A DNA stretch of 16,377 nt from Longimicrobiales bacterium (lineage in GTDB: Bacteria > Gemmatimonadota > Gemmatimonadetes > Longimicrobiales > Gaopeijiaceae), in contig JBFFWJ010000018.1 in NCBI GenBank assembly GCA_041570315.1, positions 1-16,377 of the forward strand, given 5' to 3'. A program made the position numbers and the translations under genes. How positions within the stretch are numbered: the first letter of the stretch is position 1; each line of letters starts with the position of its first letter. Below, one piece after another: positions 1,485-16,377 of the stretch. The notes beneath the pieces were generated by a model. It saw nothing but the letters and a program-made list of their open reading frames with translations, searched no databases and was not told the origin of the DNA.

Positions 1485-1501
1485 GGGCGAGCGTCTCTGC
1501 C

Positions 1502-1837
1502 ATGAAGATGATCATCGCGGTGATCAAGCCGGAGCAGCTTCCCGCCGTCAAGCAGGCTCTTTTTGATGCGGAGATCCGGCACATGACCGCCACGTCGGTG
1601 TTGGGGACGGCGCCTCGCACCGAGCAGCACATGTATCGCGGCGTGAAGAAGGAGGTGTCGCTCTTGAAGCGAGTGCGCCTCGAAGTCGCCGTCAACGACG
1701 CCAACCTGGAGCGAGCGATCGAGGCCATCTCACGCGGGTGCATGGAGTCGGGCGGGGCCGGAAAGATCTTCGTGACGGAGCTCCATGACGTCGTGACCGT
1801 GTGGACCGGCGAGCGCGGCTCGCGGGCGCTGTACTGA
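1502..1837 (+). CDS. glnK: PII nitrogen regulatory protein (GlnK/GlnB family), 111 aa
   Basis: MKMIIAVIKP...YRG...GAGKIFV...TGE aligns with the GlnB/GlnK fold (MKKIEAIIKPFKLDDV...GDGKIFV). It occupies the 3' end of the spurious long ORF 35-1837 and sits immediately after amt. The T-loop is one residue shorter and has Lys/Glu where the modifiable Tyr51 normally sits. Confidence 0.9.
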   Translation: MKMIIAVIKPEQLPAVKQALFDAEIRHMTATSVLGTAPRTEQHMYRGVKKEVSLLKRVRLEVAVNDANLERAIEAISRGCMESGGAGKIFVTELHDVVTVWTGERGSRALY

Positions 1838-1845
1838 GGCACGCC

Positions 1846-3282: not shown

Positions 3283-3302
3283 CGGCTCCCGAAGGATTGA
3301 TC

Positions 3303-4607: not shown

Positions 4608-4641
4608 CGCTCACGATCGCGGACGAGGCCGGGAGCATCGA

Positions 4642-5040
4642 ATGACGGAGAGGGAGTCGGCGGAGCACATCCTCCGCGAGCTGCTGAGCAGCCGCGGCCT
4701 GGGCCGCGACAGCCTGCTGTTTCGCGAGTCCCTTCCCGATTTCCTGGAGACGGACGAGGCGGGCGTCGAGACGCTCTCCGCCAATCCCGATCCGTCGGAA
4801 GCGGTCGTCGACGTGTATGAGGGGGGGCATGTCGCGCTGGCCGCGCACGTGGGGCCCGGACTCGCCTTCTCCGAGCAGCGTGACAACCAGTGGCGCGACG
4901 AAGGCCGCGTCGCGGTGGCGGTGCGGCTCGGTGACGTGCTCGATCAGGGCGGGCTGCCGTACCCCGTCGAGTCGGTGATCACGGAGCCCGTCTGGTACGT
5001 GACCCTGCCCGAGGGCCGTGTTCGCGTGACGCGTCTCTAG
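4642..5040 (+). CDS. Hypothetical soluble protein, 132 aa, no recognisable domain
   Basis: It fills the gap between the flotillin and the Cache-STAS genes on the coding strand. GGGAG lies upstream of the ATG. Codon usage looks like that of its neighbours. I find no family match. Confidence 0.4.
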   Translation: MTERESAEHILRELLSSRGLGRDSLLFRESLPDFLETDEAGVETLSANPDPSEAVVDVYEGGHVALAAHVGPGLAFSEQRDNQWRDEGRVAVAVRLGDVLDQGGLPYPVESVITEPVWYVTLPEGRVRVTRL

Positions 5041-5053
5041 CGGGCGCACCGCG

Positions 5054-6922
5054 GTGATCTCCTCGTTCATGCGCGACCGGTCGATCCGGGTCCGCTTGCT
5101 CGTCGTCTTCGCGATCGTCGCGCTCGTTTCGGTGGGAACCGTGGTCTTCGTGGCCAACCGGCTCGGATCGGTCACGCTGGAGCAGCAGGCCTTCGATCGC
5201 CTCACGTCGGTTCGGGAGCTGAAGGGGCAACAGGTCGAGCGCTACTTCCGCACCATCCGGGATCAGGTGCTGACCCACTCGGAGAACCGCATGGTGGTCG
5301 ATGCGGCGCGGGAGTTCGCTTCGGCGGCGTCCGGCCTCCAGGGCGAGTTGAGGGCGCCCTCGGCCGATGAGCGCGATCTCGCGCTTCGCCTCTACTATCA
5401 GCAGGAGTTCCTGCCGAGGCTGCGGGAGCGCGTCGACGACGCGCGGCCCCTGTCCGAGCTTTGGCCGAGCGACCCCCTCGCTCGGTCGCTGCAATACCTG
5501 TTCATCAGCGCCAGCCCGTTCGAGGTCGGCTCGAAGCACCTGCTCGACGACTCGGGAGCGGGCACGCGGTACGACGTGGTGCACCGTCGATATCACCCGC
5601 TTCTCCGGAGCTTCCTGGAGCGCTTCGGCTACTACGACGTCTTCCTCGTCGACGCGGCCACGAGCCGGATCGTGTACTCGGTGTTCAAGGAGGTCGACTT
5701 CGGAACCTCTCTCGAGCGGGGACCCCACCGGAGCTCCAGCCTCGCGACGGCCTACCGGTCCGCTCGGGACTCGGGGCTCACGTCGTTCACCCGCCTCGAG
5801 GACTTCGAGCCGTACACGCCGTCCTACGGCGCCCAGGCCTCGTTCATCGCGTCACCCGTCTACGACGGAACCGAGATGATCGCCGTGCTGGTGTTCCAGC
5901 TTCCGCTCGATCGGATCAACGACATCATGACGAGCGAGCGGGCCTGGCGGGACGTGGGCCTCGGCGCGTCGGGCGAGGCCTACCTGGTGGGACCGGACCG
6001 ACGGCTTCGGACCGAGTCACGCTTCCTCGTGGAGGCGCGGGAGGAGTACCTTCGTGCCGTCGCAGCCGCCGGCGTGGACGAGGGCACGGTGAGGTCGATC
6101 GAGGCGCTGGGCAGCGCGGTGGGGTTGCAGCCGGTGGTGACGGAGGGCGTCGATCAGGCCCTTTCCGGGCTGTCCGGCGTCGGCCGGTTCCTCGACTACC
6201 GGGACGTGGAGGTCTTCTCCAGCTTCCGGCCCCTGGACATCGACGATCTCGACTGGGTGCTCATGAGCGAGATCGACGCGAGCGAGGCGTTGGCTCCGCT
6301 GACCGCGCAGCGCAGGCGCATGCTGCTGGTGCTCGCGGTGTTCCTCCCGCTGCTGGCCGCGCTCGCCTCGTGGTTCGCGGGGAACCTCGTCCGCCCCGTC
6401 CGGGCCCTGTCCCGCAGGGCGGAGGAGCTCGCCCGGGGAGACCTGGACCGAGAGGTCGACGTGTCCCGGGGAGACGAGATCGGGGAGCTCGCGCGGAGCT
6501 TCGAGGCGATGCGCGTCGCGCTGCGCGAGCTGGTCGATCGGCAGAACCGCTCCATCGAAGCGCTGTCGACCCCGCTCATCCCGATCCACGACGATGTCGT
6601 CGTGATGCCCCTGGTCGGCGAGCTCGACGAGGCCCGGTGTGACCGGCTCCGCGAGTCGCTCATGACCCAGCTGCACGCGAAGGGCGCGCGCTGTGCGATC
6701 CTGGACCTGACGGGGGTGCCGAGGCTGGACGACTCCGTCGCGCGGGGCCTCGTGCGCATCGCGCAGACGGCGCGGTTGCTCGGGGCCCGCGCGATCATCT
6801 CCGGGGTCCGCCCCGAGCTCGCCGCGCAGCTGGCCGACGGGGACATCGACACCCAGGGAATCTCGACCGTACGCACGTTGAGGGATGCCATCGACGCGGC
6901 GACGGCGCATGGACGCAGCTGA
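5054..6922 (+). CDS. Membrane-anchored sensor: TM1, periplasmic double-Cache (dCache_1-like), TM2, HAMP, then a C-terminal RsbR-type STAS domain
   Basis: TM1 is LLVVFAIVALVSVGTVVFV. The Cache modules show GYYDVFLVDAATSRIVYSVFKEVDFGTSL and GEAYLVGPDRRLRTESRF...DWVLMSEIDASEALAPL. TM2 is MLLVLAVFLPLLAALASWFAG. The HAMP domain reads PVRALSRRAEELARGDLDREVDVSRGDEIGELARSFEAMR. The STAS domain starts STPLIPIHDDVVVMPLVGELDEARCDR...ILDLTGVPRLDDSVA...IISGVRPELAAQLADGDID, very similar to the STAS domain of the next gene. The start could be 5054 or the ATG at 5069. Confidence 0.82.
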   Translation: MISSFMRDRSIRVRLLVVFAIVALVSVGTVVFVANRLGSVTLEQQAFDRLTSVRELKGQQVERYFRTIRDQVLTHSENRMVVDAAREFASAASGLQGELRAPSADERDLALRLYYQQEFLPRLRERVDDARPLSELWPSDPLARSLQYLFISASPFEVGSKHLLDDSGAGTRYDVVHRRYHPLLRSFLERFGYYDVFLVDAATSRIVYSVFKEVDFGTSLERGPHRSSSLATAYRSARDSGLTSFTRLEDFEPYTPSYGAQASFIASPVYDGTEMIAVLVFQLPLDRINDIMTSERAWRDVGLGASGEAYLVGPDRRLRTESRFLVEAREEYLRAVAAAGVDEGTVRSIEALGSAVGLQPVVTEGVDQALSGLSGVGRFLDYRDVEVFSSFRPLDIDDLDWVLMSEIDASEALAPLTAQRRRMLLVLAVFLPLLAALASWFAGNLVRPVRALSRRAEELARGDLDREVDVSRGDEIGELARSFEAMRVALRELVDRQNRSIEALSTPLIPIHDDVVVMPLVGELDEARCDRLRESLMTQLHAKGARCAILDLTGVPRLDDSVARGLVRIAQTARLLGARAIISGVRPELAAQLADGDIDTQGISTVRTLRDAIDAATAHGRS

Positions 6923-6923
6923 G

Positions 6924-6946
6924 GGACCGGTTTTCTCGCACGGTCC
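6924..6946. other. Short inverted repeat GGACCG(6924-6929)...CGGTCC(6941-6946) with an 11-nt loop, in the 48-nt gap before the globin-RsbR gene
   Basis: Read from the sequence. The stem is weak and no U-tract follows. It may be an attenuator or an RNA-processing site, or nothing. Confidence 0.15.
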
Positions 6947-6970
6947 GTAACCGCAAAGGGTTGAGTTGAC

Positions 6971-7867
6971 ATGTCGCAGAGACAGATGACGGATCCGGGT
7001 CACATCGACCACCGGGAGCTTCTGGCGCTCTACCGCATCTCCGCCGAGGACCTCCAGCGTATCCGGGCCTTCGGGGTCCAGGCCCAGCAGCGGATGGAGG
7101 AGCTGGTGGAACGCTGGTACTCCTGGCTGGAGGGGCTCCCGGACTACCAGGACTTCTTCAGCGATCCGGAGACGCTGGCGCGCGTGCAGAGGCTCCAGAA
7201 GGACTACTGGAATGTCTTCATGAGTGCCGCGGTGGATGACGACTACGTCGCCCGGCGCGTCCTGGTCGGCGAGGCGCACGCCCGGATCGGGTTGCCGCTG
7301 AACACGTATTTCGCCGGCATGAACATGTTTCAGGAGCTCTTCAGCGAGGTGGTGCGCGACGGCGAGTTCGAGGACTCGGAGCGTCAGGCCGCGCTCGACG
7401 CGGTCGTGAAGCTCCTGCACTTCGACACCGCGATCGTCGTCGACACGTACAACCATCTGGTCGAGCAGACGCTCACCGCTCAATCCCGGGCGCTGATGGA
7501 GATGTCGACGCCGGTGACGCAGATCTGGGAGAGCCTCCTCTTTCTGCCGATCGTGGGAATCATCGATTCGCGCCGGTCTCGAGACATCATGAACGCGACG
7601 CTGAGCAAGATCGCGGAGACGCAGGCGCGGGTGTTCATTCTCGACATCAGCGGCGTCGGCGTGGTCGACACCGCCGTGGCGAACCACCTCATCAAGATCA
7701 CCCGAGCGACCAAGCTCATGGGCTGTGAGACGACGATTTCGGGTGTCTCCCCCGCCATCGCGCAGACCATCGTGGACCTCGGGATCGACGTCGGTGAAGT
7801 CAAGACCACCGCGACCATGCGCGACGCTCTGGCGGACGCCGTGCAACTCGTCGGCCGAGACCGGTAG
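6971..7867 (+). CDS. rsbR: RsbR-type stressosome sensor: N-terminal globin-coupled-sensor (protoglobin-like) domain plus C-terminal STAS
   Basis: The N-terminus carries the globin-coupled-sensor signature, including the proximal-His motif: RRVLVGEAHARIGLPLNTYFAG (compare IG.VH.RIGL.P.WY in HemAT-type sensors). The C-terminal STAS (STPVTQIWESLLFLPIVGIIDSRRSRD...ILDISGVGVVDTAVANHL...ISGVSPAIAQTIVDLGID) matches RsbR. AAGGG lies upstream of the ATG. Confidence 0.85.
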   Translation: MSQRQMTDPGHIDHRELLALYRISAEDLQRIRAFGVQAQQRMEELVERWYSWLEGLPDYQDFFSDPETLARVQRLQKDYWNVFMSAAVDDDYVARRVLVGEAHARIGLPLNTYFAGMNMFQELFSEVVRDGEFEDSERQAALDAVVKLLHFDTAIVVDTYNHLVEQTLTAQSRALMEMSTPVTQIWESLLFLPIVGIIDSRRSRDIMNATLSKIAETQARVFILDISGVGVVDTAVANHLIKITRATKLMGCETTISGVSPAIAQTIVDLGIDVGEVKTTATMRDALADAVQLVGRDR

Positions 7868-7881
7868 CCGCCGGGCCGACC

Positions 7882-8373
7882 GTGACGCCCGAAGGCGGTT
7901 TCAGGATCCCGCTCCAGCTCGCGCAGGCATGCGTGGTGGCATCGATCCAGGTCGACCTGGACGATCGAGTGCTCGCCACCTTCCGCGAGGAGCTGCTGGA
8001 TCTCGTCCGGCGCTCGGGCGCCCGGGGCGTGATCCTCGATCTCTCCGGCGTGGCCGTGATGGACACCGACGAGTTCGGAGCCCTCAGGGACACCATGAGG
8101 ATGGCCCGTCTCATGGGCGCCACGTCGATCGTGTCGGGATTGCAGCCGGGCGTCGTCTCCGCGCTGATCGACCTGGGAGCGGACACGGACGGGGTTCTGG
8201 CGACGGCGACGCTGGACGACGCCTTCGCTCGCATGCGGGAGCTTCAGGCTCCGGAGCCCGCCTCGGATGAGGGCGCCGACCACGCTCCCTCGGTCGCCGC
8301 CGAGCTGGAGGCGACCGCTTCCGACGAGCCCGGACGTCCCGAACCGGAAGGCTCCTCGCGTGACGGCGCCTAG
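7882..8373 (+). CDS. rsbS: RsbS-type single-domain STAS stressosome scaffold protein
   Basis: IPLQLAQACVVASIQVDLDDRVLATFREELL...VILDLSGVAVMD...LMGATSIVSGLQPGVVSALIDLG aligns along its full length with B. subtilis RsbS, including the phosphorylatable Ser in DLSGV. It has an acidic C-terminal tail. The start is GTG. Confidence 0.88.
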   Translation: MTPEGGFRIPLQLAQACVVASIQVDLDDRVLATFREELLDLVRRSGARGVILDLSGVAVMDTDEFGALRDTMRMARLMGATSIVSGLQPGVVSALIDLGADTDGVLATATLDDAFARMRELQAPEPASDEGADHAPSVAAELEATASDEPGRPEPEGSSRDGA

Positions 8374-9466
8374 GGCGGTCAAGCGGATCCGGAGCGACCC
8401 GGACGTCAGCCACGCGGTCATCGCGGCGTCGGACTTCGCGCGCGGCCTCGATTTCAGCGAGCTGGACAGCCGGGCCATCGGCACGGTCGTGTCCGAGCTC
8501 GCCACGAACATCCTGAAGTACGCCGTGCACGGCCAGGTGACGATCGAGGAGGTGGGCTCGGGGGACCGCCACGGCATCCAGGTCACCGTGTCCGATCGCG
8601 GGCCCGGGATCGCGAACGTGCGGGAGGCGCTCCAGGATCACTTCAGCTCGAGCGGCACGCTCGGCCTCGGACTTCCCGGGGTTCGTCGCATGGTGGACGA
8701 CTTCGACCTGCAGTCCGAGGTGGGGCGGGGCACGACCGTCGTCGTGCGAAAGTGGAAGAGCCATGGGGCGTCGCGCACCCGTCGTGCGGGCATGCTGCAG
8801 GGCTCTCCCGGGAGCGCCGCGTTCGCCGAGCGGGGCACCGACCGGGGCAGCGAGACGTTCGAAGCCTCCGGTCACCCCGAAGGAGCGTTTCACGTCGTGC
8901 ACGTGAATCGTCCGTGCAGGGGTGAGCTCGTGAGCGGAGACGGCGTTCTCGTGAGCCGCGTGGAAGGGACCGTGCTGATCGTCGTGGTCGACGGGCTGGG
9001 GCACGGGAGAGAGGCCAACCTGGCTGCCAAGGCCGCGACGCGGCTGGTCCGCAAGGAGCCCATGCTCGACCTGGGGCACCTGATGATCCGGCTGGACGAT
9101 CGGCTCCGCGGCACGGTCGGAGCCGCGGTCTCCCTGTGCTCGGTGGATCTCGCTTCCGGTGCCGTGCGATACGCTGCCGTCGGGAATACGGTCCTGCGCA
9201 TCGAGGGCGAGCGGTCGCACAGGATGGCTGCGGCGGCCGGCACGGTGGGAGCCCGCCTCAAGCCGCCTCGAGTGCAGTCGGCCGCCCTCGGCAAGGGGGA
9301 GGTGCTCCTGATCCACACCGACGGGATCTCCGAGCGCCTGAGCCCGCAGGACTATCCCCAGCTCCGGTATCAGAGCCCGGAGACCGTGGCCGAGACGATC
9401 GTGGCGCGCTACGGGAAGCGGCACGACGACGCCACCGTCGTCGTGGCCAGGTTCGGCGGCGCATGA
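8360..9466 (+). CDS. Single ORF fusing an RsbT-type GHKL serine kinase (N-terminal, about 135 aa) to an RsbX-type PP2C phosphatase (C-terminal), joined by a low-complexity linker
   Basis: The RsbT part is IGTVVSELATNILKYA...VTVSDRGPGI...SGTLGLGLPGVRRMVDDFDL...TTVVVRKW. The RsbX part is LVSGDGVLVSRVEGTVLIVVVDGLGHGREANLAA...AVGNTVL...LLIHTDGISE...HDDATVVV (compare B. subtilis RsbX CGDSF...CAVADGLGSG...VGNVRF...IIHTDG...KDDLT). No in-frame stop separates the halves. The GTG at 8360 overlaps the rsbS stop by 14 nt. The six-frame ORF extends upstream to 8267. Confidence 0.78.
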   Translation: MTAPRAVKRIRSDPDVSHAVIAASDFARGLDFSELDSRAIGTVVSELATNILKYAVHGQVTIEEVGSGDRHGIQVTVSDRGPGIANVREALQDHFSSSGTLGLGLPGVRRMVDDFDLQSEVGRGTTVVVRKWKSHGASRTRRAGMLQGSPGSAAFAERGTDRGSETFEASGHPEGAFHVVHVNRPCRGELVSGDGVLVSRVEGTVLIVVVDGLGHGREANLAAKAATRLVRKEPMLDLGHLMIRLDDRLRGTVGAAVSLCSVDLASGAVRYAAVGNTVLRIEGERSHRMAAAAGTVGARLKPPRVQSAALGKGEVLLIHTDGISERLSPQDYPQLRYQSPETVAETIVARYGKRHDDATVVVARFGGA

Positions 9467-11148
9467 TCGAGCTCGGCACGATCTGGGGAGGAGCGGAGGG
9501 GGCCGTGCGGGACGCCCGTCGGAAGGTGCGGGTGACCCTCGAGCGCCTGACCGCCGACGACATGGTCGCGAGTCGGATCGCCTCGGTGACCTCTCAGCTG
9601 TTTCGCGCCCTGGATCGCGGCGCCGAGCCCGGGAGAATCGATGTCCGGCTCGATGACGCCGGGGCGGCGCCGATGCTCGTCCTCGACCTGGTCGGGGCGG
9701 GCGATGAGCTCGACGACGCCGTGGCCGAGCCCTTCTTCGACCGGATCTCGAAGGTGCTCGTGGACGGAGAGCCCGGCGTACGGCTGGGTCTGTACCTGGA
9801 TCTCGCCGTGGCGTCGGCGCTCTCCGAACGGCGCATCGCCGAGATGCGCGCCGTGATCGAGCAGAAGGGACGGGACGCGCTGATGCAGGAGCTCACGGTC
9901 AAGAACCGCGAGCTCCAGGAGTCGTTCGACAACCTCCGCCGGACCACGACGGCGAAGGAGCGCATGGAGAGCGAGCTCAACATCGGGCGCGACATCCAGA
10001 TGAGCATGCTGCCGCTCAAGTTCCCTCCGTTTCCCCACAGAACCGACTTCGCGGTCTTCGCGACCCTGGAGCCGGCGCGGGAGGTCGGGGGAGACTTCTA
10101 CGATTTCTTCCTGATCGACGAGGACCGGTTCTGCTTCTGCGTCGGAGACGTCTCGGGCAAGGGCGTGCCGGCCGCCCTCCTCATGGCGGTCACGAAGACG
10201 CTCATCAAGTCGCGCGCCACGAACGACTTCTCTCCCGCCAGCATCCTGACGCACGTGAACGACGAGATCTCGGAGAACAACGAGTCGGCGATGTTCGTCA
10301 CGCTTTGGCTCGGGATCCTGGACGTCAGCTCGGGTGACCTGGTGTACACGAACGCCGGTCACAACCCGCCCTACCTGAAGCGGGCGGGCGGCGAGCTCGT
10401 GCGGCTGGACGAGCGGCACGGCCCCGTGGTCGGCGCCGTGGACGGTCTCGTCTACTCCGAGGGCTCGGGCCAGCTGAGCGGTGGCGATGTCCTGTTCCTC
10501 TACACCGACGGCGTCACCGAAGCGATGGATCCCGCTGGACGGCTGTACGACGAGGACCGGCTCGTCTCGGTTCTGCAGTCGACGGACTTCGGCTCCGTGG
10601 ACGAGGTCGTCAAGGCGTCCACGGACGACGTGTGGCGCTTTCAGGCGGAGGCCGAGCAGGCCGATGACGTCACGGTGCTCGCGGTCGAGTTCATCGGCAG
10701 GGCAAGGGGCGTAGGCGATCTGCACGTCCTCGACCTGGGCATCCCGAACCGCCTGGAAGAGATCGACACGGTCAACCGGGCGTTCGACGAGTTCGCGGCC
10801 GAGCGCGGGTTGTCAGAGCGGGTCCGCCGAAGCATGAAGCTCGTGTTCGACGACCTGCTCAACAACGTCATGTCGTATGCCTACGAGGACGAGGCCGATC
10901 ACGAGATCCAGGTCCACGTCGAGCTGTCGTCGGACAGGCTCGCGGTCCGCATCAGCGACGACGGGCGTCCCTTCAACCCGTTCGGGCGAACCGCCCCGGA
11001 CACGGCCCTGACGCTGGAGCAGCGAGAGATCGGCGGGCTCGGCATCCATCTCGTCCAGAACCTGATGGACGAGGCTTCGTACACGCGACGCACCGATCGG
11101 AACGTGGTCGTCCTGGTGAAATACCTTTCAGACAACGCAGAGGAGTAG
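9463..11148 (+). CDS. Output-module fusion: unassigned N-terminal regulatory region, RsbU/SpoIIE-type PP2C phosphatase, then a C-terminal RsbW-type GHKL anti-sigma-factor kinase domain
   Basis: The ATG at 9463 overlaps the upstream stop (ATGA). PP2C motifs are present: ELNIGRDIQMSMLP, GGDFYDFF, CVGDVSGKGVPAALLMA, YTNAGHNPPYL, LFLYTDGVTEA, DDVTVLAVEF. The C-terminal kinase domain shows an N-box (DDLLNNVMSYA), G1 (ISDDGRPFNP) and G2 (GGLGIHLV). Comparable PP2C-kinase fusions exist, for example in the multidomain M. tuberculosis Rv1364c. Confidence 0.85.
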   Translation: MIELGTIWGGAEGAVRDARRKVRVTLERLTADDMVASRIASVTSQLFRALDRGAEPGRIDVRLDDAGAAPMLVLDLVGAGDELDDAVAEPFFDRISKVLVDGEPGVRLGLYLDLAVASALSERRIAEMRAVIEQKGRDALMQELTVKNRELQESFDNLRRTTTAKERMESELNIGRDIQMSMLPLKFPPFPHRTDFAVFATLEPAREVGGDFYDFFLIDEDRFCFCVGDVSGKGVPAALLMAVTKTLIKSRATNDFSPASILTHVNDEISENNESAMFVTLWLGILDVSSGDLVYTNAGHNPPYLKRAGGELVRLDERHGPVVGAVDGLVYSEGSGQLSGGDVLFLYTDGVTEAMDPAGRLYDEDRLVSVLQSTDFGSVDEVVKASTDDVWRFQAEAEQADDVTVLAVEFIGRARGVGDLHVLDLGIPNRLEEIDTVNRAFDEFAAERGLSERVRRSMKLVFDDLLNNVMSYAYEDEADHEIQVHVELSSDRLAVRISDDGRPFNPFGRTAPDTALTLEQREIGGLGIHLVQNLMDEASYTRRTDRNVVVLVKYLSDNAEE

Positions 11149-11156
11149 CACGACTC

Positions 11157-11489
11157 GTGAACATGTCGATGAGCGAGAGCGGCGGCATCACCGTGGTCCG
11201 GTTCGACGGGAACCTGGACACGAACACGGCACCCGAGGCGCAGGAACGGTTCGACGAGCTGGCGGGCCAGGGCGTGGGCAAGGTCCTCGTAGACTTCGAG
11301 AGGCTCGACTACATCTCGAGCGCCGGACTGCGCGTCCTCCTCGCGACCGCGAAGAAGCTGCGCTCGGGCGGCGGCAACCTTCGCCTCTGCAATCTCAACG
11401 AGACCGTCGCCGAGGTGTTCGAGATCTCGGGCTTCAGCACGATCTTCGCCGTGTTTCCCACGGAAGCCGAGGCGCTGGAGGGCTTCTGA
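11157..11489 (+). CDS. rsbV: Anti-sigma-factor antagonist (RsbV/SpoIIAA-type STAS), 110 aa
   Basis: ITVVRFDGNLDTNTAPE...VLVDFERLDYISSAGLRVLL...NLRLCNLNETVAEVFEISG carries the conserved phospho-Ser motif DYISSAGL. AGAGGAG sits 11 nt upstream of the GTG at 11157. An ATG at 11163 is an alternative start. Confidence 0.85.
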   Translation: MNMSMSESGGITVVRFDGNLDTNTAPEAQERFDELAGQGVGKVLVDFERLDYISSAGLRVLLATAKKLRSGGGNLRLCNLNETVAEVFEISGFSTIFAVFPTEAEALEGF

Positions 11490-11497
11490 GCGTCGAC

Positions 11498-12901
11498 GTG
11501 GGCGCGGTCCCGCGAGAGGCCGCGGCCGCGGTTCTTCCGGAGGAGTCCCGCGCCCGGTACTCGTGGGACCTCGTGGTTCTGTGCGCGGTCGTGGCGACCG
11601 GTCTGATCATCCCGTTCCAGATCGCGTTCCTCCGGCGCGTGGACGTGCTGGGCAGCGTCGCGGTGTACGTGCTCGATCTCGTGTTCCTCGTCGACATGAG
11701 GCTGAACCTGCGGACGTCCTTTCGGCGTGGAGGCTCCGAGATCCGGGATCGGTCCGAGATCGCACGGCACTACCGACAGGCAGGTTTCCGTACCGATCTC
11801 CTGGGCGTGATCCCCGTGGACCTGCTGGTCCTGGGATCCGGCGCGGCGTTGGGAGGGGTCCCGCTCGCGCTGCTCTTCCGGGTGAACCGGCTGCTCCGGG
11901 TCGCCCGAGCGCTGAGGGGCTTTCGACGCTGGGAGCGGCTCCGGTGGACCAACACCGGATACCTGAGAATCGCCAAGCTCCTGATCGGGGTCTTGCTGCT
12001 GATCCACTGGGTCGCGTGCGGCTGGTTCCTCGTGGCGGTGCTCGAGGGGTTTCCTGCGGATTCGTGGGTGGCCAAGGCGGGGTTGGAGAACGTGGATCGT
12101 GGCAGCCAGTACCTGCGCTCCCTCTATTGGGGCTTCGTGACCACCACGACGGTCGGGTACGGCGACATCACGCCGTCCAAGAACGCGGAGTACGCCTTCA
12201 CCGTGGTGGTGATGATCGTGGGCGCGTCGATGTACGCGCTCATCATCGGCAGCATCGCGTCGCTGGTCAGCTCGATCGACGCGGCGAAGACCGCGTTTTG
12301 GGAGCGGGTCGACGGGGTGGGTCAGTATCTCCGCGCTCGAGGCGTTCCGGAGCCGCTTCAGGAGCAGGTCCGCGACTACTACGAGTACGTCTGGGACCGG
12401 TATCGCGGGGCGGACGCGCGGCAGCTGCTCCGTGACGTCCCCGACTCGATCCGGCTCGAGGTGCTCTTTCATCTGGCGCACGAGCTGATCGAGCGTGTGC
12501 CGCTCTTCCGTCATGGGGACGTGGCCATGCGCAACGCGCTGCTCGCGGCGCTCGAGCCGCGCGTTTTCGTGGCGGGCAGCCACGTGGTCGGCGCAGGCGA
12601 GGTCGCGGACGGGCTCTATTTCGTGAGCAGCGGGCGGCTGGTCATCGTCGATCCGTCGGGCGAGCCGTCCTCGGGCGAGCTCGAGGCCGGTGACTACTTC
12701 GGGGATCTTTCCCTTCTTCTCGGGGAGCGCCGTACCTGTTCGGTGCGAGCCGTCACCCACAGTGACATCTTCTTTCTGCCCAGCGCGGAGTTCGAGCGCC
12801 TCAAGTCCCGCCATCCCGAGTTTCGCGAGGCGCTGCGTGAGATCGCGGCCGGCAAATCCGACAAGCTCGCGGAGTTGGTGGCGAAGGGCTGCATCCTCTA
12901 G
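11498..12901 (+). CDS. Six-TM S4 voltage-sensor-type K+ channel with C-linker and C-terminal cyclic-nucleotide-binding domain (SthK/MloK1/HCN-like)
   Basis: S4 has a regular Arg spacing (FRVNRLLRVARALRGFRRWERLR). The pore helix and selectivity filter read YWGFVTTTTVGYGDITP, and S6 follows. The CNBD beta-roll shows LYFVSSGRLVIV...GDYFGDLSLLLGERRTCSVRAV. The GTG at 11498 lies 9 nt after the rsbV stop. Confidence 0.88.
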   Translation: MGAVPREAAAAVLPEESRARYSWDLVVLCAVVATGLIIPFQIAFLRRVDVLGSVAVYVLDLVFLVDMRLNLRTSFRRGGSEIRDRSEIARHYRQAGFRTDLLGVIPVDLLVLGSGAALGGVPLALLFRVNRLLRVARALRGFRRWERLRWTNTGYLRIAKLLIGVLLLIHWVACGWFLVAVLEGFPADSWVAKAGLENVDRGSQYLRSLYWGFVTTTTVGYGDITPSKNAEYAFTVVVMIVGASMYALIIGSIASLVSSIDAAKTAFWERVDGVGQYLRARGVPEPLQEQVRDYYEYVWDRYRGADARQLLRDVPDSIRLEVLFHLAHELIERVPLFRHGDVAMRNALLAALEPRVFVAGSHVVGAGEVADGLYFVSSGRLVIVDPSGEPSSGELEAGDYFGDLSLLLGERRTCSVRAVTHSDIFFLPSAEFERLKSRHPEFREALREIAAGKSDKLAELVAKGCIL

Positions 12902-12910
12902 GAGCCTGCG

Positions 12911-15481
12911 TTGAACATCGTGATTGCGGACAGTCTGGTTCGGGAGACGCTGAGCCCGGAGCGGCAGTTCCACGGCATCCCGTCGAACCTGGGGGCCCGC
13001 GAGATCGCCCGGCTGATGGGCAGGGGCCGGGCCTACGGCGAGGGACCGTTGCCGTCCCTGGTCCGCGCGGCGGCGGAGCCGGGGGGGCGCACCGGTCTCG
13101 TGCTGCTACGTGAAGTGGCGTCCGCGGACGCGGCGTCCTCGTCGCAGGACCCGCTGTCCGACTGGGTCGATCCGGTCCGGTCCGTCGTCGACCGGGCCCC
13201 CACCTTGGATTGCCCCCGCGGCCGCATTCCGTCGCGGGCGTTGATCGAGGCGATCGCCGAGGTCGCCGGGGTCGACGAGACCGCCGTGGCGGACGGGCGC
13301 GCCGACCTCGGGTTCCTCGTCGTCGGCTGCCAGACGGAGAAGCGGATCCAGGCGATCGCGACATTCCTGCGCGTGGTGCTGGGCTTCGAGCGCGTCGCGG
13401 TGAGCCCTCACCTCGTCGGCAGCTCCACGGCCGAAGCGCACTACGCCGCCCTGCGGCACAACCTCCCACGCTCGGGGGTGCGCGTGCTGCTGGATCTGGC
13501 CGAGGCGGCCCGCTGGGTCGACCTCGACCCGGATGGCGCCGGGCTCGCGGGCGGCGCTCCCTGCGTGATCGATCCGGCCGAAGCGCGCGAGCAGATGGAC
13601 GACGACGCGCAGCGGATCGTTCAGCTGATCTGCATGCACTGGACGCGGGCGGAGCTGCGGGCGCTTGCCGGCGGCTTCAGCGGGAGCATGCTCTTCATCG
13701 CGGACGGGTGGAAGGGAGAGGCGCGTACCGAGCCGATGGTGCTCAAGATCGACGACTTCGCGCAGATGAGGCGCGAGCTCGATGGCTACCACCAGGTGAA
13801 GGACTTCTTCGGCAAGCACGTGCCGACGTTCGGGTACCCGGTGCGGCAGGGCGGTCTGCTCGGCGTCGGCATGGAGCTCGCGGCGATGGAAGGCCGTCCC
13901 ATGACCCTGCAGGATCACTTCGAGAAGGCGGAGACCGAGGGCGCGGTGGCCCATTTTCTCGCCCGACTCGAGAAGTCGTTGGACCTGCTGTCGGGAAAGC
14001 TGTACGGGAACACCCTCGAGCGGAGCAGCGTGGCGCCTTTTCGCAGCTTCGGTCTCCACGTGGAGCAGCAGCTCACCTGGCTGCGCGAGAACGCCACGAT
14101 CATCCTCGGCTACGTCGCGGAGATGGGGCTCTCCCTGGAGCGCGTCGACCTCGACCAGCTCGAGAACGTGGTCCGGCTGGTGAGCAGGAATCCGGATGCC
14201 GTGGAATCCGAAGTGTGTCTGCAGCACGGGGATCTGAACTTCGCCAACGTCATCTGCGACGATGGGGACAACGTCTGGTTCATCGACTGGACGCACAGCG
14301 GCGTGCACCCGCTGGAGCTCGACTTCGCGAAGCTCGAGAGCGACGCGAAGCTCGTCATGAGCAAGGACTTCGACCCCGACGACCTGCCGAGGCTCCGCGT
14401 CTTCGAGGAGTACCTGCTGAGCCAGAAGATCCCGGCGACGGCCGACGAGCTTCCCGACGCGCTCAAGTTCGCCAAGTGGGATCTGCGCTTCAGGAAGATC
14501 CTCGACGCCGTGCGTCTGATCAGGCGGTGTTGCTTCCGCCTCAAGAAGGACGACGACTGGCTGGTCTACCGGGTCGCTTTGCTGCGCTACGCCATGCATA
14601 CCCTCAGCTTCGACCAGCGGAGAGGCCGGGGGGAGTGCGACGAGACGCAGCTGATGTACGCGCTGTACTCGTGCGAGTCGCTCTCGCTGACGCTCGTCGC
14701 CGACGACTTCCACCTGAAGATCCGGGCCGAGCGGCCGGCGTCGTATCCCGAGCGGCAGCGGATCTCGATCGACGAATCGCTGTGGGTTCTGGACTGCGAG
14801 GAGTACGACCCGCCGTACCACGTCGATCCTGCGGTCCTGGAGGCGGGGCGCGACCGCCGCGACGACGGATGGGCGGATCCGGAGGACATCGATGCCGCCG
14901 CGCTCGCCGAGCGAGCGGCCCGGTTCCGCGACGGCGGCGGGCGCCCGCTCAACCCGCGTGGGCGGACGGGGATCGCGGGGCGCGGCCTGCTGGGGCTGTG
15001 GGGCGCCAACGCTTCGGTCGTGGGGGTGGTGCTGCGGACCAGCCGGATCACCGGGGAGCTGCAGATCCTGCTCGGGTCCCGAGAGGACGACACCGCGCTC
15101 GCGCTGCCCATGGGCTTCGTGCTGCCCGACGAGGAGCCGGAGCACGGGGTGCTGCGGGTGATGGAGGTCGAGACGGGATGGCGGCCGGGGAGCACGCCGG
15201 TTCCGCTCAGTGAAGGGTACGCCTACGATGCGCGCCAGACGGATCACGCCTGGGTCGAGCGTCGGGCGTACCTCTTCGATCCGGCCGAGGAGGAGGCCCC
15301 GGATCTCTTCGACCCGGCTGGCGACCTCGAAGAGGTGTCGTGGTGGCCGATGAGCATCGAGACCATGACCCGGGTTCCGGCGGGTCAGGCGCCGGTGATC
15401 CACGAGGCGCTGGGGGCGGCGCGCGCGGCCGGGCGAATCGACGCCGAGCTGGCTGAGCAGCTGATGCGGAGGGCCGTGTGA
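12911..15481 (+). CDS. 856-aa three-domain protein: an unassigned N-terminal domain of about 215 aa, an APH/choline-kinase-like (protein-kinase-like fold) phosphotransferase domain, and a C-terminal NUDT9-homology (ADP-ribose pyrophosphatase-like) Nudix domain with a degenerate Nudix box
   Basis: TTG start, with GGAG 6 nt upstream. Kinase motifs are present: a Gly-rich loop (ALAGGFSGSMLF), a Lys (MVLKID), a catalytic loop (LQHGDLNFANVI) and an Mg-binding IDW (VWFIDWTHSG). The NUDT9 signatures are LNPRGRTGIAGRGLLGLWGANA (compare NUDT9 [22 protein letters not shown]), GYAYDARQTDHAWVERRAY (compare GYVDDPRNTDNAWMETEA) and a C-terminal VSWW...APVIHEAL. The Nudix box reads GFVLPDEEPEHGVLRVMEVETGW, that is RE-x-x-EE changed to RV-x-x-VE. 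Confidence 0.8.
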   Translation: MNIVIADSLVRETLSPERQFHGIPSNLGAREIARLMGRGRAYGEGPLPSLVRAAAEPGGRTGLVLLREVASADAASSSQDPLSDWVDPVRSVVDRAPTLDCPRGRIPSRALIEAIAEVAGVDETAVADGRADLGFLVVGCQTEKRIQAIATFLRVVLGFERVAVSPHLVGSSTAEAHYAALRHNLPRSGVRVLLDLAEAARWVDLDPDGAGLAGGAPCVIDPAEAREQMDDDAQRIVQLICMHWTRAELRALAGGFSGSMLFIADGWKGEARTEPMVLKIDDFAQMRRELDGYHQVKDFFGKHVPTFGYPVRQGGLLGVGMELAAMEGRPMTLQDHFEKAETEGAVAHFLARLEKSLDLLSGKLYGNTLERSSVAPFRSFGLHVEQQLTWLRENATIILGYVAEMGLSLERVDLDQLENVVRLVSRNPDAVESEVCLQHGDLNFANVICDDGDNVWFIDWTHSGVHPLELDFAKLESDAKLVMSKDFDPDDLPRLRVFEEYLLSQKIPATADELPDALKFAKWDLRFRKILDAVRLIRRCCFRLKKDDDWLVYRVALLRYAMHTLSFDQRRGRGECDETQLMYALYSCESLSLTLVADDFHLKIRAERPASYPERQRISIDESLWVLDCEEYDPPYHVDPAVLEAGRDRRDDGWADPEDIDAAALAERAARFRDGGGRPLNPRGRTGIAGRGLLGLWGANASVVGVVLRTSRITGELQILLGSREDDTALALPMGFVLPDEEPEHGVLRVMEVETGWRPGSTPVPLSEGYAYDARQTDHAWVERRAYLFDPAEEEAPDLFDPAGDLEEVSWWPMSIETMTRVPAGQAPVIHEALGAARAAGRIDAELAEQLMRRAV

Positions 15482-16284
15482 CGGGTTCGCTCCTGCCCGC
15501 GGAGCGCGACGCGCTCGAGCGCTTCCGGGCCGACCTCCTCGAGCCGGCGAGGCCGGACGCCGACGAGCGCGCGACGCTGGCGAGCCACGGGGGCGATCCG
15601 GCGCTCGAGGAGCGCGCGTGGACCACCTTCGTCCTGCGGACCGTGCTCCTCGCGGGACGACGGGTGCGAGCCGGGACGCCGGCGCTGCTGCGGTTGAAGG
15701 GCGATGGCTCGCCGTCGACCGAGCTGGAGCGGCAGGTCGAGGAGGAGATCGGGGCTGCGCTCGGGGCATTCGCGCCGGAGGCGGTGCTCGTGGGTGAAGA
15801 GACCGGTGGCCGCCTGGGCGCCGCTCGTTGGGCGCTCAGCGTCGACCCCATCGACGGGACCTGGGCGTTCCTTTCCCACACGGAGACGTTCTCCGTGGTG
15901 ATCACCCTCTTCCGGGATGGGCGGCCCTACCTCGGAGTCGTCGGGAGTCCCCTGCTCGGTGAGGTCGGATACGCCGTTGCCGGCGGGACCACCCGGCTGG
16001 TGCGGCTGGACCTCTTCGGTGAGGGCGACGAGGCCTGCTCCCTCCCCCTCGCGGATCGCGATCCGCAGAAGGTGCTCGTTCACCTGCACCCCTCTCCGGC
16101 CGGCTCGAGGCTGATGGCCGCGATGTTCGGCGCCTGGGCCCGAGGCCGCGTCCGTATGGTGCGCGCGCCGGGCGGGTCGCCGTCGTGGGGCCTGCTCGAG
16201 GCGGCCCGAGGGCACTTCACGTACGTGAACGAGTGGGCCAGATCCCCGGCGGATCCCTGGGATCTGGCCGCGGGGGTCCTGCTC
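15478..16284 (+). CDS. Inositol-monophosphatase-family phosphatase (IMPase/SuhB/CysQ-like). It appears truncated or joined at its C-terminus.
   Basis: The GTG at 15478 overlaps the upstream stop (GTGTGA). IMPase motifs are present: GDGSPSTELERQVEEEI, VLVGEETGG, WALSVDPIDGTWAFL...FSVVITL...PYLGVVGSP, and GGSPSWGLLEAARGHFTYVNEW...PWDLAAG. The ORF has no stop inside the window, so it is absent from the supplied ORF track. After WDLAAGVLL the homology switches to MscS (next feature). Confidence 0.72.
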
Positions 16285-16377
16285 GCCATGTTGCGTCCGT
16301 TCAAGCCCGGGGACTACATTTCGGGCGCCGGCACCGAGGGTAGCGTGCGCGAGATCGAGCTCTTTACGACCTTGCTC
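16264..16377 (+). CDS. MscS-family mechanosensitive channel fragment (end of TM3 and start of the beta-domain). It is in frame with, and fused to, the IMPase-like ORF.
   Basis: DLAAGVLLAMLRPFKPGDYISGAGTEGSVREIELFTTLL aligns residue for residue with E. coli MscS [41 protein letters not shown]. The upstream hydrophobic TM1/TM2 that MscS requires is absent. This stretch has more T-ending codons (ttg, cgt, att, ggt, ttt) than the rest of the window. Confidence 0.55.
   Translation, partial: MAAGVLLAMLRPFKPGDYISGAGTEGSVREIELFTTLL

Follow-up and report, generated by a model that had tools for sequence, protein, structure and literature searches.

The gene at positions 12,911 to 15,481 of the window (the whole 16,377-nucleotide stretch that was analysed) encodes a protein of three domains, in which a kinase with intact motifs is flanked by a nicotinamidase-like domain and a NUDT9-homology (NUDT9-H) domain that have both lost catalytic residues family-wide. 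From its sequence, the central kinase is predicted to be the sole catalytically competent domain. Within a stress-sensing operon the gene occupies the output end, and STAS, cNMP-gated K+ channel, kinase and inositol-monophosphatase-family (IMPase) phosphatase genes form a conserved operon (Table 1). The explanation that we favor, and hold tentatively at somewhat below an even chance, is a kinase under partner-switching control that would carry a non-hydrolytic module for an ADP-ribose (ADPR)-type nucleotide and take part, together with the IMPase, in a phospho-metabolite cycle.

Table 1. Coordinates of the kinase gene, its domains and motifs, and the neighboring genes in the window.
Feature	Position	Strand	Details and basis
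132-aa protein, HopF/AvrPphF-ORF2 ADP-ribosyltransferase (ART) fold-related	4642..5040	+	profile of 110 homologues; PF09143
Three STAS-domain sensor/scaffold genes, stressosome RsbR/RsbS-like	5069..8373	+	Pfam; gene calls in near-identical contig L033
dCache-HAMP-STAS gene	5069-6922	+	Pfam
Protoglobin-STAS gene	6971-7867	+	Pfam
STAS gene	7933-8373	+	Pfam
HATPase_c_2 fused to PP2C (SpoIIE) domain	8360..9466	+	Pfam; gene call in L033
PP2C (SpoIIE) phosphatase fused to RsbW-like HATPase_c_2 kinase domain	9463..11148	+	Pfam; gene call in L033
Single-domain STAS protein, anti-sigma-antagonist type	11157..11489	+	phosphorylatable Ser motif DYISSAGL; Pfam STAS 3.3e-25
Six-TM K+ channel with C-terminal cyclic-nucleotide-binding domain	11498..12901	+	TVGYGD selectivity filter; Pfam Ion_trans 8e-32, cNMP_binding 1.8e-17
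Kinase-fused pseudo-NUDT9 gene	12911..15481	+	856 aa; pseudo-nicotinamidase, kinase, pseudo-NUDT9 (NUDT9-H); ORF, GC3, homologues
Isochorismatase/nicotinamidase-fold domain	12911..13645	+	aa 1-245; nucleophile Cys replaced by Arg145, metal ligands lost
VVGCQTEKR, Arg145 at nucleophile Cys position	13319-13348	+	transitive alignment
ELK/APH-type kinase domain	13646..14713	+	aa 246-601; Pfam, conserved motifs, Foldseek
Gly-rich loop LAGGFSGS	13664-13687	+	kinase domain motif
Catalytic loop HGDLNFAN	14225-14248	+	aa 439-446
Mg-binding IDW	14282-14290	+	aa 458-460
NUDT9-homology domain	14720..15478	+	aa 604-856; NUDT9_N cap (about 604-700) and Nudix core; phmmer, family profile, Pfam, Foldseek
NUDT9 signature block NPRGRTGIAGRGLLGLWGAN	14951..15010	+	aa 681-700
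Degenerate Nudix box Gx5Ex7-RVMEVE-xGW	15113..15181	+	first two catalytic Glu both Val; columns counted in 113 homologues
NUDT9 block YDARQTDHAWVE	15224..15259	+	aa 772-783; alignments; holds D773, R775
Inositol-monophosphatase-family gene, 5' part	15478..16285	+	GEE, DPIDGT, WDLAAG motifs; Pfam Inositol_P

The open reading frame begins with a TTG codon at 12,911, with AGGAG 6 nt 5' of it, and ends at the stop codon at 15,479-15,481. Its GC3 is 0.91 and its GC2 0.45, compared with about 0.68 overall, and therefore the frame is coding. The N-terminus, MNIVIADS, is common to the product and its homologues, and the frame is a real gene. With E ≤ 1e-5 as threshold, 347 clusters of the 90% database were matched in a homologue search; of the best 120, 113 were full-length members, and the column counts given below are over these 113 homologues. 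The architecture is thus uncharacterised yet widespread in bacteria, not rare. The sequence-only reading knew of no characterised bacterial protein that joins a kinase to NUDT9, and literature searches for the pseudo-nicotinamidase/kinase/NUDT9-H architecture turned up none either.

Sequence comparison assigns the C-terminal domain to the NUDT9 clade and to no other Nudix clade. The last 250 aa matched human NUDT9 (1q33) with an E value of 2.4e-11 by phmmer; for TRPM2 NUDT9-H domains the values ranged from 6e-9 to 4e-5, while the family profile matched cap and core of NUDT9 at 5.5e-23 (chain residues 13-271) and those of vertebrate TRPM2 NUDT9-H at about 1e-17. Pfam NUDIX was found at 2e-7, PF25969 (NUDT9_N) and NUDIX are both entered in the precomputed Pfam record, and Foldseek matched the C-terminal part of the model to the TRPM2 chanzyme and to NUDT9 1qvj. 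Human mitochondrial NUDT9 (1q33/1qvj) is the best match for aa 604-856 in both sequence and structure. The NUDT9 identity given in the sequence-only reading is borne out by these scores, whereas its extent of about 180 aa was too short, since the domain covers about 250 aa with cap and core. In the AF2 model the cap region (aa 602-700) is of low confidence, with a pLDDT of 33-65. Like NUDT9, this part of the protein is built of two subdomains and carries the NPxGRTGxxGRGxLGxWGxN and DxRxTDxAW blocks; unlike NUDT9, it has no long insertion following the Nudix helix and is one of three domains. Each motif quoted earlier (NPRGRTGIAGRGLLGLWGAN, WGANASVVG, RVMEVE, YDARQTDHAWVE, HGDLNFAN and IDW) was located in the sequence, and WGANASVVG does stand where NUDT9 has WGPNHAADP.

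The canonical Nudix box, Gx5Ex7REUxEExGU, is degenerate in this protein. The active hydrolase NUDT9 carries the canonical REFGEE, whereas two of the three Glu are missing from the window protein: its box GFVLPDEEPEHGVLRVMEVETGW (aa 735-757) reads RVMEVE at 749-754, and the alignment agrees with the earlier statement that both are replaced by Val. Among the 113 homologues, the second position is Val in 100 and Ile in 8, the fifth is variable, and the sixth is Glu in 85 and Asp in 12. REUxEE is absent from every kinase-fused representative, and RE[FL]xEE is kept by most other NUDT9-like representatives with an aligned box. Judged from these columns, the loss is fixed and ancient in the whole kinase-fused clade. 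The pattern resembles vertebrate TRPM2 NUDT9-H, which is homologous to NUDT9 across cap and core, is likewise fused to a signalling effector, and has the first Glu hydrophobic, the second lost and the third kept (RILRQE in TRPM2, RV[LM]xxE in the kinase-fused family). Unlike in TRPM2, the effector is a kinase, the K+ channel (six-TM K+/CNBD, no TRPM) is encoded by a separate neighboring gene, and catalysis was lost independently, in a bacterial clade.

Two residues of the second NUDT9 block, D773 and R775, align with D271/R273 of NUDT9 and D1431/R1433 of hTRPM2; the Asp is kept in at least 90% and the Arg in 100% of the sequences. Their counterparts contact ADPR, the Asp by stacking on the adenine and the Arg at the alpha-phosphate (PMC7612441, PMC6759353). 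A vestigial Nudix box combined with these retained contacts is the constitution of a TRPM2-type NUDT9-H. NUDT9 carrying the RIL substitution loses hydrolysis and still binds ADPR at about 16 nM (PMC7612441, PMC6461439), and by analogy the C-terminal module may bind an ADPR-type nucleotide without hydrolysing it. The signature blocks and D773/R775 vary little or not at all, in contrast to the drifting catalytic Glu positions, and this pattern is the one expected if binding, not catalysis, is selected. D172 of NUDT9, which contacts the ribose-5-phosphate, is replaced by a hydrophobic Val or Ala in the kinase-fused family, which also sets the pocket apart from that of TRPM2. This replacement and the altered WGPNHAADP block imply a terminal-ribose pocket unlike the one in NUDT9, and with a hydrophobic D172 equivalent the module may bind something other than plain ADPR. 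The equivalent of hTRPM2 Y1485 is unaligned. The observations of the sequence-only reading were confirmed, and its interpretation was partly supported.

It is very improbable that the protein is a bifunctional enzyme whose Nudix domain still acts as a pyrophosphatase on ADPR or a related compound through non-canonical catalytic residues. Some Nudix enzymes do have catalytic residues outside the Nudix box, and Glu741 of Gx5E and Glu754, the last of the box, are conserved among the homologues. Many family members are also named 'ADP-ribose pyrophosphatase' by JGI, but this name seems to have been carried over automatically from the Nudix/NUDT9 match. No constraint is seen at the position of the second Glu, the Mg-coordinating first Glu is hydrophobic in 113/113 homologues, and both NUDT9 with RILGEE and hTRPM2 with RILRQE are inactive (PMC6461439, PMC7612441).

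The fusion of kinase and Nudix domains had been recognised from the sequence, but the protein is not limited to two domains, because aa 1-245 form a third folded domain. It has the isochorismatase fold and lacks both the Asp-Lys-Cys triad (Cys in GxxTxxC) and the Asp/His metal site. Compared with nicotinamidase PncA and the isochorismatase superfamily, the nucleophile Cys is replaced by the nearly invariant Arg145, as placed by transitive alignment without structural superposition, and the DxH segment with the Asp/His metal ligands is deleted in the clade of the window protein; the equivalent of Asp8 is kept as D7. With nucleophile and metal ligands gone, the domain is therefore no amidase.

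The central domain has a kinase fold in the AF2 model, with a pLDDT of about 81-96 in most 10-residue blocks and 66-76 in a few, and Foldseek matched it to mycobacterial maltokinase 4u94 (1.7e-8), glucosamine kinase 6hwk and APH(3'). Pfam identified TCAD9 (PF19974) at 2.5e-22 (80.1 bits, cutoff 40), with the best stretch at model positions 300-429 of 429, and APH (PF01636) at 3.9e-10 (40.3 bits, cutoff 23.2); both belong to clan CL0016 of ELK/APH-type kinases. The beta3 Lys279 and alphaC Glu289 were identified, and G254-G255, S257-S259, K279, E289, H439-G440-D441, N446 and D459 are invariant in 113/113 homologues, with the remaining positions of the Gly-rich loop, catalytic loop and IDW conserved or conservatively substituted. 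Motifs and model thus agree with the earlier description of an intact APH-type kinase, and the domain is predicted to be active. It shares fold, Brenner motif HGDxxxxN and downstream Asp with maltokinase, glucosamine kinase, APH(3') and TCAD9, at only 13-19% sequence identity; the flanking pseudoenzyme domains are unique to the kinase-fused family. The ELK fold and HGDxxxxN motifs are also found in atypical protein kinases.

The GTG start of the IMPase gene overlaps the kinase stop by 4 nt (GTGTGA), and the gaps between STAS, channel and kinase genes are 8 nt and 9 nt. No promoter-like site was found between 11,000 and 16,377, and the few weak terminator-like matches there each lie within coding sequence. 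The IMPase assignment rests on Pfam Inositol_P (3.2e-19 for the window fragment, 2.2e-30 for a full-length homologue). An IMPase gene lies directly 3' of the kinase gene in 25/25 informative loci from at least 6 phyla, and a STAS gene lies no more than 2.6 kb upstream in 20/25. Of the 25 loci with upstream DNA, 14 have the channel gene next to the kinase gene, as have 2 further, partial loci, and the channel gene is missing at many, including that of the second-closest homologue (L002). Members of a deep sister clade with the same architecture (P0192, P0141) are without IMPase or STAS neighbors, and therefore the operon logic is limited to the clade of the window protein. IMPase-family proteins can also serve in non-enzymatic roles, as SuhB is present in the PDB as a Nus factor. 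The linked IMPase gene, the adjacent K+ channel, the partner-switching context and the RsbW-like fusion described below were not mentioned in the sequence-only reading.

These neighbors bear on whether the kinase acts on proteins. An ADPR-gated protein kinase, with the K+ channel, the STAS protein or glutamine synthetase as possible targets and the IMPase as a metabolic or accessory neighbor, is unlikely though by no means negligible. RIO1 (2.4e-4) and Bud32, both atypical protein kinases, are weakly matched by the catalytic-loop region, TCAD9 belongs to a protein-kinase clan, the cluster is a protein-phosphorylation cascade, and the channel gene is often adjacent. However, small-molecule kinases are the top matches by structure, phosphorylation and dephosphorylation of STAS are already accounted for by the HATPase_c_2 and PP2C genes, the channel is absent from many loci, and the most strictly linked partner belongs to the IMPase family, which acts on small phospho-sugars and nucleotides.

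The upstream genes are those of a partner-switching system, comprising a STAS protein with a phosphorylatable Ser next to RsbW-like HATPase_c_2 and PP2C domains, and synteny of the three STAS sensor/scaffold genes with the kinase gene is seen in several phyla. Related contigs also contain a TrkA_N membrane protein gene. In one lineage (P0124/L035), the RsbW-like HATPase_c_2 domain is naturally fused to the kinase/NUDT9-H protein (1014 aa), within a minimal operon ordered FHA-PP2C, STAS, fusion and IMPase with overlapping starts. The cluster resembles stressosome and partner-switching modules (RsbR-RsbS-RsbT and RsbU-RsbV-RsbW) in its globin- and Cache-linked STAS sensors, the small STAS protein upstream, the RsbW/RsbT-like HATPase_c_2, the PP2C phosphatases and the RsbV-like STAS with its conserved Ser. 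Unlike those modules, it has no sigma factor, its apparent output consists of kinase, IMPase and ion-channel genes, and that one lineage has a direct fusion of the RsbW-like domain with the kinase. Described stressosomes include ones with a haem-globin RsbR and with downstream modules other than SigB, for example in O2 sensing by Vibrio (PMC4976288, PMC10436020).

The profile of the 132-aa protein had a single match, 1s21_A (E=3e-6), which places the invariant R28 on the functional Arg, and PF09143 was matched in 6/10 members of its family. Its gene adjoins the kinase/IMPase pair in L012, L016 and L020, and it is tentatively taken as a member of the system. This gene bears on two further alternatives. 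The flanking pseudoenzyme domains could be ligand-free scaffolds for oligomerisation or docking around a sugar, osmolyte or antibiotic kinase whose product is recycled by the IMPase, with no involvement of ADPR. This is quite unlikely, even though the metal ligands and the D172 equivalent are lost, the cap is poorly modelled, the kinase is similar to maltokinase and glucosamine kinase, and the K+ channels and AmtB-GlnA beside the cluster are compatible with osmolyte metabolism. The near-invariance of the NUDT9 blocks, D773 and R775 against drifting catalytic Glu positions and the co-occurrence of the ART-fold gene with the kinase/IMPase pair argue against it. A component of an anti-phage or conflict system using NAD+-derived signals is a remote prospect. 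ADPR derivatives are defence signals in Thoeris-type systems, an ART-fold gene is in the cluster, and the best Pfam match, TCAD9, is named for vWA-MoxR-VMAP ternary conflict systems. However, the TCAD9 match is mainly to the C-terminal third of the model, no vWA, MoxR or VMAP gene was found in the window or in the near-identical contig, and kinase, IMPase, STAS and 132-aa proteins (the last labelled hyp132) had no PADLOC match. The locus also keeps stable synteny with the housekeeping genes amtB and glnA in different phyla, which a mobile defence island would not be expected to do.

Most of the functional interpretation is carried by the IMPase, the K+ channel and the partner-switching context. 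In the partner-switched kinase that we favor, the NUDT9-H module would bind ADPR or a close derivative without hydrolysis, in parallel to vertebrate TRPM2 NUDT9-H, and the bound nucleotide would either gate the kinase or serve as its presented substrate. A small metabolite of sugar or nucleotide type, in the most plausible case an ADPR-like nucleotide, could be phosphorylated by the kinase and dephosphorylated again by the translationally coupled IMPase in a cycle. An NAD kinase paired with an IMPase-type NADP phosphatase is found in the archaeal MJ0917 fusion. By analogy only, this pair also couples a kinase to an IMPase-family phosphatase, and the MJ0917-type substrate is of adenine dinucleotide type; unlike here, its kinase has a different fold, and NAD or NADP as substrate is unsupported in the window system. 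The protein would be the regulated output of a stressosome-like cascade, in which Cache, protoglobin and STAS sensors would signal through PP2C/RsbW-like modules to the STAS protein, and the cascade may act on the kinase via an RsbW-type domain, alongside the cNMP-gated K+ channel and, in related contigs, the TrkA_N membrane protein. We infer the ligand, the phospho-acceptor and a small-molecule rather than a protein substrate of the kinase protein from this arrangement. Together, the kinase gene and its stress-sensing operon point to an unexplored ADP-ribose/NAD-linked signalling route in bacteria.

The window is about 68% GC and all of its convincing genes lie on the + strand. The kinase gene, which has AGGAG 6 nt 5' of its TTG start, shows a GC3 of 0.91 and a GC2 of 0.45. 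A sequence-only reading had described its product as a kinase fused to a degenerate NUDT9-homology (NUDT9-H) domain predicted to bind ADP-ribose (ADPR), and all of the motifs it quoted were found in their places in the 856-aa protein. Pfam matched TCAD9 (2.5e-22, protein-kinase clan), APH (3.9e-10) and NUDIX (2e-7), and PF25969 NUDT9_N was also present in the precomputed Pfam record of a near-identical database protein. With the motifs in place and these Pfam matches, that observation is therefore confirmed. A phmmer search of aa 1-630 against the PDB returned no match, and NCBIfam gave kinase matches only, all of them sub-threshold. Literature searches on TCAD9, on NUDT9 with kinase, STAS, isochorismatase or IMPase, and on bacterial NUDT9-like sensors turned up no description of the family. 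Members are named in databases as 'NUDIX domain-containing protein', 'phosphotransferase' or 'ADP-ribose pyrophosphatase', the last of which is probably wrong.

Features of the cluster and motifs of the kinase gene product (window coordinates unless a residue range or another contig is given)
Feature	Location	Strand	Remark
amtB, glnA, SPFH (Band-7) gene	177-4607	+	start of gene order; 132-aa protein gene next
dCache-HAMP-STAS, protoglobin-STAS, STAS	5069-8373	+	after 132-aa protein gene
HATPase_c_2-PP2C then PP2C-HATPase_c_2		+	after three STAS genes
STAS, 110 aa, DYISSAGL Ser motif	11157-11489	+	before K+ channel
six-TM K+ channel, TVGYGD, cNMP-binding domain	11498-12901	+	before kinase gene
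kinase gene, 856 aa	12911-15481	+	TTG start
IMPase-family gene	15478-16285	+	after kinase gene; 5' part; metal motifs intact
membrane protein, 428 aa, two TrkA_N (RCK, NAD-binding-type) domains	L033 13515-14801		3' of IMPase gene
LAGGFSGS	aa 252-259		kinase gene product
HGDLNFAN	aa 439-446		kinase gene product
IDW	aa 458-460		kinase gene product
NPRGRTGIAGRGLLGLWGAN	aa 681-700		kinase gene product
Nudix box GFVLPDEEPEHGVLRVMEVETGW	aa 735-757		kinase gene product
YDARQTDHAWVE	aa 772-783		kinase gene product

The last 250 aa of the protein matched human NUDT9 (1q33, 2.4e-11) and after that only TRPM2 NUDT9-H domains. A family profile of 63 members matched NUDT9 over cap and core (5.5e-23) and TRPM2 proteins at 1e-20 to 1e-15, and the AF2 model of the protein resembled the TRPM2 chanzyme and NUDT9 (1qvj). 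The earlier placement of the domain in the NUDT9 clade thus stands, and its size is corrected from about 180 aa to about 250 aa. Alignment to NUDT9 also bore out the loss of two of the three Nudix-box glutamates: REFGEE corresponds to RVMEVE (R749-E754), with Val in place of E230 and E233, and E234 retained. Box columns were counted over 113 full-length homologues of 52-84% identity. At position 2, 100 of the 113 have Val, 8 have Ile and none has Glu; position 5 is free to vary (A, G, S, R, V and others); at position 6, 85 have Glu and 12 have Asp; and both the Gx5E Glu and the box Arg are near-invariant. Neither NUDT9 carrying RILGEE nor hTRPM2 carrying RILRQE is active (PMC6461439), and ADPR binding persists in NUDT9-RIL with a Kd of ~16 nM (PMC7612441). 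The adenine-stacking and alpha-phosphate contacts of the ligand in hTRPM2 are D1431 and R1433 (PMC6759353), equivalent to NUDT9 D271 and R273, and these are conserved in the kinase family as D773 and R775. At the position of NUDT9 D172 the family has a hydrophobic residue. Frozen binding blocks with released catalytic positions are the pattern expected of a ligand-binding pseudoenzyme. Near the terminal ribose, the predicted ligand may not match ADPR exactly. Beside these column counts, a still-active, non-canonical Nudix hydrolase has only a very slim chance. The cap (window 14714-15010, aa 602-700) is strongly conserved in sequence (ERPxSYPxRQRISIDE..W..Y.PPY.V...GWADPE) and has a pLDDT of 33-65 in the full-length AF2 model; like the labile NUDT9 cap, it may fold only upon binding a ligand or partner.

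A full HMMER scan with the NUDT9-H domain searched 1.84 billion representatives and found 1259 relatives, the best 150 of which were compared, with Nudix boxes read as HMM-anchored columns (a regex search had missed most of them). Among these best 150 of 1259, every kinase-fused protein had a degenerate box and a variant block, YDxRQTDHAW or DDYRNTDHAW, and the other NUDT9-like proteins with an aligned box mostly carried RE[FL]xEE and DDPRNTDNAW. The exceptions were short proteins with the kinase-clade box and repeats inside very large multi-repeat proteins; some of the short ones are fragments of kinase-fused genes, as in P0127 and P0144, database relatives that have a TCAD9 tail.

A third, N-terminal domain was absent from the sequence-only reading. 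Two distant three-domain relatives, P0192 and P0156, still match Pfam Isochorismatase, and P0192 matched nicotinamidases by sequence (3s2s, 6e-5; 5zn8, 3e-4). Its N-terminal region retains the metal-site motif PHNxKGxxGAD, and the nucleophile Cys of TDIC aligns with an Arg. The window protein, which matched P0192 at 3e-33, has the same, near-invariant Arg (R145), and a deletion in it removes the Asp/His metal ligands. Both flanking domains are therefore read as pseudoenzymes, descended from enzymes that handle the NAD+ cleavage products nicotinamide and ADP-ribose. The kinase between them had been said to keep an intact catalytic loop. In all 113 sequences its Gly-rich-loop catalytic residues, K279 and E289 are unchanged, as are the catalytic residues of HGDLNxxN and IDW. 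The nearest structures to the full-length model (pLDDT 83) were a mycobacterial maltokinase (1.7e-8), a glucosamine kinase and APH(3'). The central domain is predicted to be an intact ELK-type kinase, and the protein as a whole a single active kinase between two pseudoenzymes.

The context survey covered 32 related loci, drawn from one-genome-per-species contigs, and a few further contigs. The loci are mostly from Gemmatimonadota, the others from Planctomycetota, Acidimicrobiia, Thermoanaerobaculia, Akkermansiaceae, Fimbriimonadia, Desulfobacteraceae and Myxococcales. The Myxococcales locus L032, which is interrupted by masked N runs, was left out, and its reading as a truncated architecture was rejected for the same reason. 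The IMPase gene lies directly 3' of the kinase gene in every one of the 25 loci whose downstream DNA was usable. Of 25 loci with upstream DNA, 20 have a small STAS gene at most 2.6 kb upstream, and in 14, as well as in 2 partial loci, the K+ channel gene adjoins the kinase gene. In locus L015 a 77-aa channel remnant (9544-9774) stands alone between the STAS and kinase genes, and L002, a close homologue locus, lacks the channel altogether; gain or loss of the channel gene within the operon is therefore easy. Around the kinase gene, neighbouring genes are separated by 8 nt and 9 nt or overlap by 4 nt (GTGTGA). A scan of 11000-16377 revealed no promoter-like site, the terminator-like sites in that interval were weak and all within coding sequence, and an Rfam scan of the window gave no match. 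These results show that the kinase gene is translationally coupled to a gene for an IMPase-family phosphatase and genetically tied to the STAS/RsbW/PP2C switch.

The window and the metagenomic contig L033 are 99.86% identical over 2911-16285. The IMPase stop overlaps the start of the TrkA_N protein gene, which is beyond the window's reach and was also found in L002, L004 and 12 other loci; it lies 3' of the IMPase gene in 14 of 20 informative loci. The TrkA_N membrane protein is a second ion-transport-related partner. The last 92 nt of the window (16286-16377) diverge from L033; the IMPase frame there enters MscS beta-domain-like sequence (Pfam MS_channel_2nd, 8e-6), and homologous IMPase matches all end at aa ~270. 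Either an assembly junction or a rearrangement specific to the strain probably accounts for this divergence. At the other end, the amtB, glnA and SPFH/Band-7 genes are syntenic with the STAS/partner-switch/kinase cluster in several phyla (the window and loci L002-L004, L013-L015, L030 and L031), which suggests a connection with the homeostasis of nitrogen or K+-glutamate. In a deep sister clade with this architecture (P0192, P0141), IMPase and STAS neighbours are missing, and the operon logic is therefore limited to the window's clade. On contig L036 (8001-13264), the P0192 three-domain gene, which has no IMPase or STAS neighbour, sits just 5' of NuoF-like (Complex1_51K, NADH-binding) and NuoE-like genes, an arrangement that may reflect another setting, one related to NAD(H).

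The upstream genes of the window resemble RsbR/S/T and RsbU/V/W of stressosomes, but without a sigma factor. The protoglobin-STAS and dCache-HAMP-STAS proteins resemble RsbR-type stressosome sensors, and an RsbS-like STAS comes next. In Vibrio, stressosomes have been described that combine haem-globin sensors with outputs other than SigB (PMC4976288, PMC10436020). If the window's proteins are such sensors, the cluster would be a stressosome of Gemmatimonadota that takes gas and small ligands as inputs and has no sigma-factor output. Contig L035 (GCA_039817085.1) carries a minimal four-gene operon (1726-7154) with all starts overlapping, in the order FHA-PP2C, STAS, P0124 and IMPase. P0124 (1014 aa) has an RsbW-like HATPase_c_2 at the N-terminus of a pseudo-nicotinamidase-kinase-NUDT9-H protein, which makes it the most informative variant; the fusion argues for the kinase as the target of the partner switch.

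We propose that the NUDT9-H domain would bind an ADPR-type nucleotide uncleaved and either gate the kinase or present the nucleotide as phospho-acceptor, that the kinase would write and the IMPase erase a phosphate on a small molecule, and that the STAS phosphorylation state would control the kinase via the RsbW-type domain. This whole package is tentative, and we place it slightly below an even chance. The kinase also has weak RIO and Bud32 matches, which favor the main rival, an ADPR-gated protein kinase; we consider it unlikely. The nearest solved relatives of the kinase domain act on sugars and aminoglycosides, and an ordinary sugar kinase surrounded by ligand-free scaffolds is distinctly improbable. 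The least probable rival is a defence system: PADLOC gave no match for the kinase, IMPase, STAS or 132-aa proteins, and its Pycsar/TIR effector models matched nothing but the channel's generic CNBD.

The conserved 132-aa protein (4642-5040) has a family of small proteins around it that numbers at least 638. Used as a profile, 110 homologues matched a single PDB entry, AvrPphF ORF2 (1s21_A, E=3e-6, two colinear stretches), which has a HopF-type ADP-ribosyltransferase (ART) fold, and a subset of the homologues has a precomputed PF09143 match. Its invariant Arg28 falls opposite chain position 74 of 1s21, an Arg that we take to be the functionally essential R72. The gene adjoins the kinase/IMPase pair in L012, L016 and L020, loci without the rest of the cluster. 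If the protein consumes NAD+, it would, speculatively, supply ADPR and nicotinamide, matching the ancestry of both pseudoenzyme domains. Extending the proposed kinase/IMPase cycle, the cluster could be a complete bacterial ADP-ribose second-messenger pathway, a prokaryotic counterpart, in function, to ADPR-gated TRPM2 signalling but assembled from separate genes. The ART-fold protein would cleave or transfer from NAD+ to give ADPR (or an ADPR adduct) and nicotinamide, and the pseudo-NUDT9 and pseudo-nicotinamidase domains would read the two halves. The kinase would turn ADPR into a phosphorylated messenger that the IMPase erases, the messenger or the kinase would control the neighbouring cNMP-type K+ channel and the TrkA_N membrane protein, and the stressosome-like O2/ligand-sensing partner switch would govern the entire pathway. 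We regard this joint reading as highly unlikely.

To our knowledge, non-hydrolytic ADP-ribose-binding NUDT9-homology domains have so far been known as the vertebrate TRPM2 ligand sensor. All of the domains here are of known kinds, and their combination is new. The kinase family lost the same Nudix-box positions as TRPM2, fixed independently in a large bacterial family, which points to an independent, family-wide conversion of NUDT9 to a TRPM2-like non-catalytic module in bacteria. Whereas TRPM2 is a channel, the bacterial module is attached to a kinase, together with a second, nicotinamidase-derived pseudoenzyme; also new is the inferred place of the kinase as output of a partner-switching cascade. 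If this holds, free-living bacteria would use ADP-ribose or a phosphorylated derivative as a physiological signal outside phage defence, a concrete enzymatic output could be assigned to stressosome and partner-switching cascades that have no sigma factor, and the family would offer a tractable soluble model for ligand-to-effector transmission by NUDT9-H.
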